A DNA stretch of 27,103 bases. Origin: Promethearchaeati archaeon (GTDB lineage Archaea > Asgardarchaeota > Heimdallarchaeia > JABLTI01). Shown piece by piece: positions 24,619 through 27,103 of this stretch. Where the stretch lies: positions 1 to 27,103 of the forward strand of contig JABLTI010000065.1 of assembly GCA_013166835.1 (NCBI GenBank), given 5' to 3'. Numbering within the stretch: the first letter of the stretch is position 1; each line of letters begins with the position of its first letter. The position numbers and the translations under genes were made by a program. The notes below the pieces were generated by a model, which made no database searches, was not told the origin of the DNA, and was given only the letters and a program-made list of their open reading frames with translations.

Positions 24619-25152
24619 ATGGCATTCTTTCTAAGACTATTCAGAAAAAAGAAACAAGCAAACATGACAATATGTGGGTTGGATAAAGCCGGAAAAACAT
24701 CTGTAGTTAATTACTTGATGCATGGAGAGAATAGAGAAACAATCCCAACAATGGGCGTAAATGTAAATACAGTAAACCTACCAAAACTTGATATTCACAT
24801 ATATGATCTCGGAGGACAGGAAGGATTCCGCCCACTCTGGTCGGATATTAATGAGAGATCACAAGCAATTGTTTACATTGTAGATTGTACTGACTTCGAG
24901 CGATTTGAATTAACAAAAAACATCTTTCATGACATCATTGATGCTCAAATTGATGACAATGTTCCAGTGTTGATTTTATTAAATAAAATAGATTTGCCTA
25001 ACAGAATGTCTCGAGCAGATTTCATTTACCACTTTGGATTATTGGATCTCAAGAATACTACCTGGTCTTGTTATGAAACTTCAGCCATGACCGGGGGAGG
25101 ATTAATTGAAGCATTCACTAGTTTTATTCATAAATTAGAAGACGAAGCATGA
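24619..25152 (+). CDS. Arf/Arl-like small GTPase
   Basis: N-terminal amphipathic MAFFLRLF, GLDKAGKT, TIPTMG, DLGGQ, RPLW, NKID, TSA. Confidence 0.93.
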   Translation: MAFFLRLFRKKKQANMTICGLDKAGKTSVVNYLMHGENRETIPTMGVNVNTVNLPKLDIHIYDLGGQEGFRPLWSDINERSQAIVYIVDCTDFERFELTKNIFHDIIDAQIDDNVPVLILLNKIDLPNRMSRADFIYHFGLLDLKNTTWSCYETSAMTGGGLIEAFTSFIHKLEDEA

Positions 25153-25259
25153 AGCTGCTTGCTTTCTGTCTTCATATTTCACCTATTTTTTTCAAACTTT
25201 TTTTTCATTAATTATTGTTTATTTTGTAAGTTAAAGGAAGAATGTTAGAAAAATAGGGC

Positions 25260-25297
25260 ATATTTCTAATATAGTAATATGACCATTTTGGTTATAT
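25260..25297. promoter_or_regulatory. Tandem overlapping palindromic operator ATAT-N2-CYA-N3-TRG-N2-ATAT
   Basis: ATATttCTAataTAGtaATAT (25260-25280) and ATATgaCCAtttTGGttATAT (25277-25297), abutting TTTATATA. Matches 26507-26527. Confidence 0.7.
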
Positions 25298-25339
25298 TTA
25301 TATACTAGTTAGACCTATAATAATACAAGTGATAAAAAC

Positions 25340-25711
25340 ATGCACCAGAAGAAACATAAAAGATACAGACCACATGGGCCGTTCATGCACAGAAGAGCAT
25401 ATTTCCCACCAATGGGAATGATGCCACACATGTTTAAAGGAATGAACAAATTACCCATGAATTTCCTGGAAGAGATCGAATCAAAAGAAGATGCGATTGA
25501 ACACATGGAAATAATGATTAAAGGCGTTAATAAACGCAGAAAACATCTTGAGAAGAAAATGAAGAAACTAGACATCCTAGAAGATGAAATAGAAACAGTA
25601 ATCAAAGAAACAGGCAAAATGAAGGAATTCACAATCGAGGAATTCAAGAAGATCGTCAAGAAAGGATACAAAGAATTTGCCAAAAAGATGATCGATGAAG
25701 ACGACTTCTAA
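25340..25711 (+). CDS. PadR paralog lacking the winged-helix domain (His/Pro/Met-rich leader plus coiled coil)
   Basis: Aligns by eye with the N-terminal leader and C-terminal helices of the PadR protein at 26563. Confidence 0.75.
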   Translation: MHQKKHKRYRPHGPFMHRRAYFPPMGMMPHMFKGMNKLPMNFLEEIESKEDAIEHMEIMIKGVNKRRKHLEKKMKKLDILEDEIETVIKETGKMKEFTIEEFKKIVKKGYKEFAKKMIDEDDF

Positions 25712-25814
25712 GATACTTTTTTCAATGTACAAAACAAGGAACTCAAGATGATTCACTTATTTTTTTAGAATAAAAAAAAAGCAGCAATAAGAAGATAATT
25801 TCTTATTACCAATA

Positions 25815-26393
25815 TTATACATACTCATGTTTTGGTTGTTTCATAACTTTCTTTCCAAGGATGCCTTCCCCAATCCTTATTAGTCCAATAATTACTATTA
25901 TAACTCCAAGAATTAGGATTTTGAATTTATCTTGTATTGTATCTAGTCCAAGACTAAGTATAGCTAATCCAACTATCAAATAACCTATTGTAATGATAAC
26001 AAGTCTATACACATCTTTTCGTTTGTGATTTCTACAACCTCGAGCGATGTTTTGAATTCCGAGTAATATTAATGCTGTTGCTAATAAGACAATTATTACT
26101 CCAATGGTAATAGTAAGACTGCCTGCAATTGCTACGATAGCAAATGGGAGTATTAATAGCCCAATTGCTATGTTACTTATTCTTCCTTCTTTGTTCATTT
26201 TGAAATCAAAGTTGCCTATTATAAACCTATTAATACTAATCAAAAGCAAAGCTATACCTAATAGGAGAACCAAAATTGCTTCAGTAAATACATTGATCAT
26301 AACGATAAATCCAAAAATGACGGTAATTGAACCCAGTACTATATAGAAGATCTGTAACCACTTTGGAAAATTATCAGCAATATTTTTTGTCAT
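25815..26393 (-). CDS. HdeD/DUF308-like six-TM membrane protein
   Basis: Three repeated TM hairpins with the LLLGIALLLISI / LILLGI / LGVIIVIIGLIRI pattern. Confidence 0.75.
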   Translation of the reverse strand: MTKNIADNFPKWLQIFYIVLGSITVIFGFIVMINVFTEAILVLLLGIALLLISINRFIIGNFDFKMNKEGRISNIAIGLLILPFAIVAIAGSLTITIGVIIVLLATALILLGIQNIARGCRNHKRKDVYRLVIITIGYLIVGLAILSLGLDTIQDKFKILILGVIIVIIGLIRIGEGILGKKVMKQPKHEYV

Positions 26394-26506
26394 AAATTAC
26401 ATCAAACCATAGAAAATTTAAAGTTTATTGAGGTTTTATAGATTATTTCTAAGTCCCTGGTGATCTATACAAAGTTCAGTATAAATATCAACATTACCAA
26501 CTGAGC

Positions 26507-26527
26507 ATATATCCAAACTGGAGATAT
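26507..26527. promoter_or_regulatory. Palindromic operator ATATatCCAaacTGGagATAT upstream of PadR
   Basis: About 20 nt downstream of TATAAATA (26480-26487). A degenerate overlapping copy lies at 26491-26510. Confidence 0.7.
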
Positions 26528-26562
26528 TTTTTTATTTATAGGAACAGAATACCTAGCTGGTA

Positions 26563-27103
26563 ATGAAAATGGATAGAAAGCACCACCGAAGACCAATGCC
26601 ACCCTTCAGACCACATTTACCGTTCGGCCCCAAATTAGTGAAAGAAATGAGTCGCTTAGTTTTTCTCTGGACGATTTCAGAGGAGTCCGAAGGTATTACA
26701 GGTTATGAATTACAGAAAAACTACAAAGCTAAGCAAACCACTGTTTACAGAGTTCTAAAAGAGATGGAAGAAAAAGAGCTTCTAACTTCGGAAGAAACGA
26801 TAATTAAAGGCAGAGCTCAAAGGTTGTATAAAATTACTGAGAAGGGAAAAGAACACTTAGTAGAATTACGTGAAAAGTGGACTGCCAGGATTGCTTTCCT
26901 TACTGATATAGCTCCTGTAGGCATGCGTCCTCCACCAATTTTTAGAAGAAAATCCAGGATTCATGATTATTTGAATAAAGTTGAAACGAAAGAGGAAATG
27001 CTTGAATTTCTCGATGGATATAAGGAACACATTAATCGAAGAAAAACACAACTCGAGAATCGATTAAAGCATTATGATAATAATTTGGATAAACTTGATG
27101 AAA
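26563..27103 (+). CDS. PadR-family winged-helix transcriptional regulator (3' end beyond the window)
   Basis: Manual translation: MKMDRKHHRRPMPPFRPHLPF...ITGYELQK...TTVYRVLKEMEEKELL...RAQRLYKITEKGKEHL...; frame stays open to the window end. Not in the ORF track. Confidence 0.9.
   Translation, partial: MKMDRKHHRRPMPPFRPHLPFGPKLVKEMSRLVFLWTISEESEGITGYELQKNYKAKQTTVYRVLKEMEEKELLTSEETIIKGRAQRLYKITEKGKEHLVELREKWTARIAFLTDIAPVGMRPPPIFRRKSRIHDYLNKVETKEEMLEFLDGYKEHINRRKTQLENRLKHYDNNLDKLDE

Follow-up and report, generated by a model that had tools for sequence, protein, structure and literature searches.

A PadR-family regulator and a neighboring short paralog of its C-terminal domain carry the same predicted operator in a Heimdallarchaeial genome

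The TrlR/TraR pair provides an example of a LuxR-type antagonist without a helix-turn-helix (HTH), the Id and LITTLE ZIPPER proteins are microProteins of eukaryotes, and SinI of Bacillus subtilis, which has a counterpart in the SlrA/SlrR pair, resembles the C-terminal oligomerization region of SinR. SinI has been described to heterodimerize with SinR, to disrupt its multimerization and to displace it from DNA; this small protein devoid of a DNA-binding domain (DBD) is encoded directly upstream of its repressor, in the sinIR operon (PMC6123443). CerN, which has no HTH, antagonizes CerM, and it is presented as a truncated paralog with an interaction domain that titrates the full-length factor (PMC11655674). 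In the HAAS-PadR dyads, which include LftR/LftS (DUF1048) of Listeria, a protein of about three helices is described as always lying beside a PadR-like regulator and is proposed to be a modulator (PMC11237479, PMC4517056). In this study, we analyzed two genes on contig JABLTI010000065.1 of the Promethearchaeati archaeon assembly GCA_013166835.1 (Asgardarchaeota; Heimdallarchaeia), the whole 27,103-nt sequence of which is referred to as the window: a gene for a PadR-family regulator and, upstream of it on the same strand, a short gene whose product is related to the C-terminal domain (CTD) of that regulator.

The pair is similar to SinI/SinR in that the short protein keeps the interaction domain of the regulator and lacks its DBD. 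SinR has an Xre-type HTH, unlike the winged HTH (wHTH) of PadR, and no sequence relation between them was seen. The locus also differs from sinIR in that it is archaeal, in that the short protein has a long His/Met/Pro-rich leader, and in that the short gene carries the regulator's own predicted operator, so that the regulator would control its putative antagonist. As in the HAAS dyads, the short gene lies beside the PadR gene in 10 of the 10 genomes that have it. In contrast to those dyads, DUF1700, DUF1129 and DUF1048 were absent among the families listed for the 23 members of the short-protein family at E up to 0.1 (25 of 51 Pfam families, the others each matching at most two members), and the conserved G-x-P was not found in the third-helix columns of the family alignment (A3). 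Furthermore, the PadR protein of a HAAS dyad is a stand-alone wHTH, whereas the PadR protein studied here carries the domain of its partner, the partner being a paralog of the CTD. CerN/CerM and the eukaryotic microProteins belong to unrelated families, and the eukaryotic cases are an analogy only, with no sign of descent. The first-pass annotation of this sequence had likened the short protein to Id-type microproteins; the comparison can be kept, but the closest analogs are bacterial (SinI/SinR, CerN/CerM and HAAS/LftS-PadR) and not eukaryotic alone.

PadR proteins of subfamily-1 (B. subtilis PadR, AphA, LadR and VanR) are described as consisting of a wHTH, a loop and a CTD of one short and two longer helices, and as regulating themselves through palindromic operators of about 20 bp (PMC5728393). 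The regulator described here shares this layout in its structural model and, by prediction, the operator and self-regulation, while differing in a CTD without a Pfam family and in a poor whole-chain fit to the structure 5x11 (root mean square deviation 13.8). In full-text literature searches (supplements not covered), we found no description of a PadR regulator with a stand-alone CTD paralog, or of such a pair in Asgard archaea. We propose, at a probability of roughly 0.45, that the two genes form an autoregulated module in which the CTD-only paralog binds the CTD of PadR and modulates its repression, most likely as an antagonist.

The short protein and the C-terminal domain of PadR

The two genes occupy the following positions.
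25340-25711, plus strand: short gene, 123 aa (open reading frame (ORF), AlphaFold2 (AF2) model, profile homology, and ratio of nonsynonymous to synonymous substitution rates (dN/dS))
26563-27103, plus strand: gene for the PadR-family regulator (PF03551), first 180 of 205 aa, with the rest on contig C159

A BLASTP comparison between the short protein and PadR gave an E-value of 3e-6. The Smith-Waterman score was 81 versus 35.5 ± 5.9 for shuffled sequences, and 0 of 2000 shuffles reached it. When the residues were shuffled within 10-residue windows, 0 of 2000 reached the score of the C-domain alone; with the whole short protein against the 180-aa PadR piece, the score was reached by 3 of 2000 shuffles in 15-residue windows and 25 of 2000 in 10-residue windows. 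Profile comparison with hhalign yielded a probability of 97.9% and an E-value of 3.9e-13 for close orthologs, and 98.8% and 4.7e-17 for the diverse family, with a score of 104.2 over 85 columns. By comparison, 100 column-shuffled profiles scored 11.8 ± 1.8, with a maximum of 17.8, and a reversed profile scored 17.7. The alignment spans the linker and the entire CTD of PadR, including the 25 residues beyond the window, and corresponds to residues 23-115 of the short protein, which has no wHTH. In a search of its own genome with the short-family profile, the PadR CTD was the best second match (E 8.1e-9).

The first-pass annotation had reported this similarity from the letters of the sequence, and its observation was confirmed. 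All of the strings quoted in it were found, including RPHGPF in the leader of the short protein versus RPHLPF in that of PadR (DNA cagaccacat-NNN-ccgttc in both) and PMGMMP versus PVGMRP in the linker, and a hand recount of the ungapped 45-aa block gave 12 of 45 identities. It had placed the similarity on both sides of the wHTH. On the C-terminal side, the similarity lies far above the controls, whereas the RPHxPF leader match is present but statistically weak: 30 of 5000 shuffles reached the pairwise score, and at the profile level, with 18 of 200 shuffles reaching the score, the homology of the leaders lacked significance.

The PadR ORF runs off the end of the window, which is the entire contig C165 of a 3.56-Mb genome (G000) that is 85% complete. 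The remaining 25 residues and the stop codon are supplied by contig C159, whose end (positions 1501-1552 of locus L002) overlaps window positions 27052-27103 by 52 nt at 100% identity. This join is supported because the gene after PadR on C159 resembles the gene after PadR in locus L007 of the same genus. C165 and C159 are probably neighboring contigs, the PadR gene having been split by an assembly break, and the homologs of 203-207 aa match the total of 205 aa. For the analysis of full-length PadR, the 90%-identical homolog P0018 and alignment A2 were used, and the two pieces were not joined.

The regulator matched Pfam PF03551 with 34.3 bits (cut-off 27, E 2.3e-8), and a profile of 25 of its homologs matched solved PadR proteins with E-values down to 3.4e-8. 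The AF2 model of P0018 had a predicted local distance difference test (pLDDT) score of 80.6 and revealed a disordered leader (residues 1-22), a wHTH domain (23-116), a low-confidence linker (117-131) and a CTD of three helices (132-139, 143-187 and 193-204). A Foldseek search with this model gave E-values down to 1.6e-5 and target template modeling scores of 0.70-0.84, and the matches include 5zi8, 6abq, 4esb, 3hhh and 7wjp. As modeled, the separate CTD follows a loop and contains one short and two longer helices. Within an E-value limit of 1, the 180-aa piece matched no Pfam family of the subfamily-1 CTD, and only wHTH families were named in the precomputed Pfam lists for 28 PadR homologs. 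In B. subtilis PadR, the conserved residues reported to contact DNA are Tyr20, Tyr42 and Lys67 (PMC5728393).

The AF2 model of the short protein (pLDDT 72) contained a disordered segment (residues 1-38) followed by helices at 40-45, 49-92 and 99-120, which is the same three-helix pattern as in the model of the PadR CTD. A database search with the short protein identified 17 proteins, 11 of which were 119-123 aa long and 73-94% identical. A profile search of 1.84 billion representatives identified 23 members with a common motif pattern. Most of them (21 of 23) are stand-alone proteins of 69-166 aa, and the remaining two (229 and 254 aa) are PadR-like and have the domain at the C-terminus. No Pfam or NCBIfam model describes this family, the NCBIfam matches being sub-threshold noise. 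Judged by these matches, the regulator belongs to the PadR family, and the short protein belongs to no described family.

Searches for known structures resembling the short protein gave no specific match. Foldseek found nothing in the Protein Data Bank (PDB) at E up to 0.001, and a wide fold search with VIA returned unspecific helical-hairpin matches with a best Z-score of 8.3; the solved DUF1048 structure was not among the rows listed in either search, in which hairpin matches are unspecific. The family profile gave only coiled-coil noise against PDB sequences (best E 0.049), and a search of the ESM Atlas gave no usable match.

The disordered leader of the short protein is rich in His, Met, Pro, Gly and Arg. 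When the leaders of all 23 family members were pooled, the contents of His (11.3%), Met (10.8%) and Pro (12.8%) were higher than those in the long ORFs of the genome (1.7%, 2.3% and 3.8%, respectively), and positional conservation across the members was poor. The leader of PadR itself is rich in Pro, Arg, Phe, Met and His. That these leaders sense a metal or a redox state is put forward as an idea only.

The dN/dS of the short gene was 0.18 against two close orthologs and 0.18-0.19 over all comparisons, which identifies the short ORF as a genuine, conserved gene under purifying selection. An antisense ORF of 122 aa (25315-25683, minus strand) overlaps it; this ORF is uninterrupted in the window and in L007 and is broken by a single stop codon in L006. 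The dN/dS of the antisense frame was 0.35-0.41 in the two comparisons that involve the window, above the value of the sense frame, and in the comparison of L006 with L007, which differ by few changes, the sense and antisense values were about equal (0.19 and 0.17). The antisense ORF has the appearance of a shadow frame opposite a Lys/Glu-rich gene.

In a tree of the CTDs, 21 of the 23 short proteins clustered together, with weak support and separately from the PadR CTDs. With 84 columns, this tree is too short to guide a view of the origin of the family, and it was set aside for that purpose. The layout of leader, linker and CTD fits an origin of the short gene from a PadR copy that lost its wHTH, although this is not proven.

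The pair across genomes and its operator

We searched 83 genomes of the class, comprising the genome of the window, 11 other genomes of its family (f1) and 71 genomes of six other families. Stand-alone short genes were found in 9 of the 11 other family genomes and in 0 of the 71 genomes of the six other families, where the matches to the short-family profile lie inside PadR frames, except for one weak match in a 650-aa frame. The same 9 family genomes contain a PadR gene with the CTD, and the remaining two contain neither gene. In two of the other families, PadR with the CTD occurs without a short gene (4 of 31 and 6 of 22 genomes). The order is conserved in all 10 genomes with the pair, the short gene preceding PadR on the same strand. 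Both genes lie on one contig in 8 of the 9 other genomes, and seven measured spacers range from 97 to 168 nt; in the ninth (G073), the tail of the short gene is at a contig end, about 100 nt from PadR. The genes flanking the pair vary between species; therefore, the pair alone is conserved. Genome G075 also contains, beside its short-PadR pair on contig C66, a second PadR C-terminal half on another contig (C70:1-363, locus L019), which could represent either an additional copy or a duplication in the assembly.

Alignment of the regions upstream of both genes across the loci revealed a 21-bp palindrome, ATATnnCCA-N3-TGGnnATAT. Its positions in the window and those of the likely promoter elements are listed below.
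25277-25297, no strand: operator O1, palindrome ATATGACCATTTTGGTTATAT, before the short gene and sharing 1 nt with the beginning of its TATA box
25297-25304, plus strand: putative TATA box of archaeal type TTTATATA, 35 nt upstream of the short gene's ATG
26507-26527, no strand: operator O2, palindrome ATATATCCAAACTGGAGATAT, before the PadR gene
about 26533-26540: TATA-like sequence TATTTATA, a few nucleotides downstream of O2 and about 25 nt before the ATG of PadR

The strict pattern ATATNNCCANNNTGGNNATAT had exactly two matches in the 3.56-Mb genome, O1 and O2, and about 0.05 occurrences would be expected by chance, as estimated from the base composition. A weight matrix trained on 13 sites, all from other genomes, ranked O2 first (28.1 bits) and O1 second (21.4 bits) genome-wide, followed by sites of 18.7 bits and below. 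The three next-best sites (on contigs C206, C143 and C63) lie inside ORFs and were set aside as chance matches. The visible regulon thus consists of these two genes only, in a genome that is 85% complete. An equivalent site is present before the short gene in 10 of the 10 family genomes that have this gene and before PadR in 9 of 10, and the palindrome was found in 0 of 3 PadR loci of another family. The string ATATTTATATACT is kept upstream in eight of the nine loci shown (the window, L006-L010, L012 and L013) and differs in L014. The TATA boxes were assigned tentatively from the archaeal consensus.

Because the site sits on the TFB-recognition element (BRE)/TATA region, its position suggests repression by blocking the TATA-binding protein (TBP) and transcription factor B (TFB), as far as general knowledge of archaeal promoters can be applied here. 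Considered together, the findings make a strong bioinformatic case, based on sequence, for a module of a regulator and its paralog that would be co-regulated.

Two further observations were made at these promoters. Just upstream of O1, at 25242-25280, there is an imperfect inverted repeat of 13 nt (ATGTTAGAAAAAT / ATATTTCTAATAT, 85% complementary), which is partly kept in L006 and L007 and in which a weak operator-like site scores 11.5 bits (25260-25280); this region may be a second, degenerate binding site. In L014 (G082:C237), which represents the only sister-genus genome, the palindrome is present before the short gene and none was found before PadR. The TTG start assigned by the ORF caller to the L014 short gene overlaps the operator, and translation probably begins instead at the downstream Met that is present in P0057.

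The inserted gene and the surroundings of the pair

Between 24.6 kb and the end of the contig, the window contains four genes, encoding an Arf GTPase, the short protein, a DUF308-like protein and PadR. The features not listed above are as follows.
24619-25152, plus strand: gene for an Arf-family small GTPase (PF00025, E 9.5e-44)
25758-26485, boundaries approximate, no strand: insertion of about 730 bp that carries the DUF308-like gene and its own promoter region
25815-26393, minus strand: gene for a DUF308-like membrane protein, 192 aa (sub-threshold DUF308 match)

At 851 nt and with one gene in it, the interval from the short gene to PadR in the window is unlike those at the other loci; in none of the nine other family genomes with the pair was a gene seen between the two. 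The insertion was mapped against the homologous spacers of L006 and L007, loci of the same genus that do not have it. Its gene product matched DUF308 (PF03729) with 22.6 bits in two stretches, against a cut-off of 25, and had no match in NCBIfam. Contigs assembled from runs X2, X4 and X5, which belong to three studies, bridge the insertion or lie inside it, and contigs from run X1 leave 25840-26479 uncovered and are uninformative. The insertion is thus real. Two paralogs of the inserted gene with 37-41% identity are located on contig C93 of the same genome, and genome G081 contains four copies, the best of which is 71% identical and lies at an unrelated locus. On the basis of these comparisons, the DUF308-like gene is an insertion seen only in this species and lies outside the conserved module.

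The first-pass annotation had placed a feedback loop around this gene, which it called HdeD-like. Such a loop is unsupported because the insertion was seen in this species only. We also considered and rejected the possibility that the PadR operator controls the DUF308-like gene: distances of about 124 nt and about 90 nt separate the center of the operator from its ATG and its likely TATA box, respectively, and the locus does not contain this gene in the other genomes. The Arf GTPase gene is on the same strand as the short gene and 187 nt upstream of it, and this neighborhood is retained in L006 and L007 and not in the remaining species.

The modeled complex and the possible action of the short protein

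A single complex was modeled, that of the hetero pair, using PadR (alignment A2), the short protein (alignment A3) and three controls. The interaction prediction score from aligned errors (ipSAE) was 0.62 (0.61-0.64 between runs), and the best of the three controls scored 0.00. The runs agreed in at least 55% of the contacts, and the pLDDT of the partner was at least 62. When the tool was calibrated, 116 of 157 solved complexes and 2 of 215 mismatched pairs attained this mark; these counts are a rough guide since our own alignments were used. In the model, the interface is formed CTD to CTD with the long helices antiparallel, and PadR residues 150, 157, 161, 164 and 168 contact residues 88, 81, 77, 74 and 70 of the short protein, respectively. 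When the residues of the short protein were mapped to PadR numbering (+94), every contact pair summed to 332; the sums being constant, the short protein is modeled where the second CTD of a symmetric PadR dimer would sit. No consistent pattern of charge complementarity between the two CTDs was seen in the three pairs examined. In B. subtilis PadR, the CTD is reported to contribute about 70% of the interface of the dimer, and monomers result from single mutations in it (PMC5728393). The model supports the binding of PadR to the short protein through their CTDs.

According to the mechanism we favor, a PadR dimer would bind the 21-bp palindrome at the BRE/TATA region of its own promoter and that of the short gene and repress both. 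The CTD of the short protein would pair in an antiparallel manner with the CTD of PadR, in place of a second PadR CTD, and this binding would alter the hold of PadR on the operator. Antagonism, as with SinI, is the likelier direction of the effect. Because PadR would then repress its own antagonist, the circuit would be a double-negative switch, i.e., one with positive feedback.

The first-pass annotation had proposed in similar terms that the short paralog heterodimerizes with PadR and inactivates or tunes it. This interpretation is partly supported. The absence of a winged helix from the short protein and its relationship to the CTD of the adjacent PadR were borne out by profiles, models and conservation; the similarity survived shuffling, the short ORF is under purifying selection, the pair is syntenic in all 10 family genomes that have it, and the sharing of an operator between the two genes, also claimed there, corresponds to the 21-bp palindrome at each promoter. 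For the heterodimer, the complex model speaks for binding, and not for the effect on PadR. Among the public runs listed, no RNA data set contained the locus.

Several points weigh against this mechanism. The choice between antagonist and co-repressor is guided by analogy alone. The ipSAE is the model's own confidence, and a model may bring together two coiled-coil-like domains that are homologous whether or not each prefers itself as a partner. The CTD of PadR matched neither a known C-terminal family of PadR proteins nor a solved structure, and in its first 100 residues PadR is similar to single-domain (subfamily-2) members of the family, which are reported to dimerize through helices α1 and α4 (PMC5728393). 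Because the short protein lacks α1 and α4, PadR might remain a DNA-binding dimer when the short protein is bound. In addition, ten genomes of other families have PadR with the CTD and no short partner, and no operator was found before PadR in G082. A bolder version of the proposal, in which the pair is a closed archaeal toggle with memory and the first microProtein- or SinI-type antagonist in archaea, and in which the leaders of both proteins, kept in composition and not in sequence, respond to redox or to a soft metal (Cu, Ni or Zn) and thereby shift the balance between homodimer and heterodimer, is regarded as a long shot.

An alternative, which we consider rather unlikely, is that the short protein is the regulated output of PadR, a homodimeric helical protein with an active, disordered His/Met-rich tail that might, for example, bind a metal or a different ligand or partner; the CTD would serve it for its own dimerization only, and it would have no action on PadR. 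PadR regulators typically control adjacent genes and themselves, and since the operator stands before both genes and nowhere else in the genome, the short gene is their sole visible target here. The enrichment of His, Met and Pro in a leader whose positions are poorly conserved would suit such cargo, and the separate, weakly supported grouping of 21 of 23 short proteins suggests a long independent evolution. For LftS, the small partner of the PadR-type LftR, its authors argue for an LftR-independent effect (PMC4517056). However, this alternative leaves unexplained why the output copies the interaction domain of the regulator and why the genes never separate in 10 of 10 genomes, and the complex model favors a CTD-CTD contact.

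It is also conceivable, but improbable in our view, that the short protein is a co-repressor or signal subunit that joins the PadR dimer through the CTD, for example, in a 2:2 complex, and is required for repression, strengthens it or relays a signal from its leader. In that case, the feedback of the loop would be negative, and it might depend on how much of each protein is present relative to the other. The structural and genomic evidence is the same as that for the antagonist, and PadR may, judging from the models, keep its α1/α4 dimer with the short protein bound; HAAS proteins, described as always lying beside PadR-like wHTH genes, are likewise proposed to be signal transmitters (PMC11237479). 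On the other hand, the ten other-family genomes mentioned above indicate that this type of regulator can work alone, and the characterized DBD-less paralogs known to us are antagonists.

A chance similarity due to coiled-coil composition, or a short ORF that is not a gene, is largely refuted and can practically be dismissed: in its favor, the two regions consist of helices rich in Lys and Glu, the short gene is overlapped by an antisense ORF, and 25 of 2000 sequences reached the pairwise score in the harshest shuffle, but the shuffled and reversed profiles, the window shuffle of the C-domain, the common motif pattern of 23 diverged representatives and the lower dN/dS of the sense frame in the two window comparisons (equal in the third) all speak against it.

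To our knowledge, hardly any bench work has addressed how transcription is regulated in Asgard archaea. The locus described here offers a small, defined circuit, in which one regulator and one candidate modulator are joined by one predicted 21-bp operator that is present at two promoters. Even if the short protein only represents cargo, a PadR operator is defined by the locus, as is a new family of His/Met-rich proteins whose ligand would be of interest. If the short protein titrates PadR, a family of approximately 120-aa proteins that has no Pfam or NCBIfam model would gain a function, and regulation by a DBD-less paralog would extend to archaea and to the PadR family.

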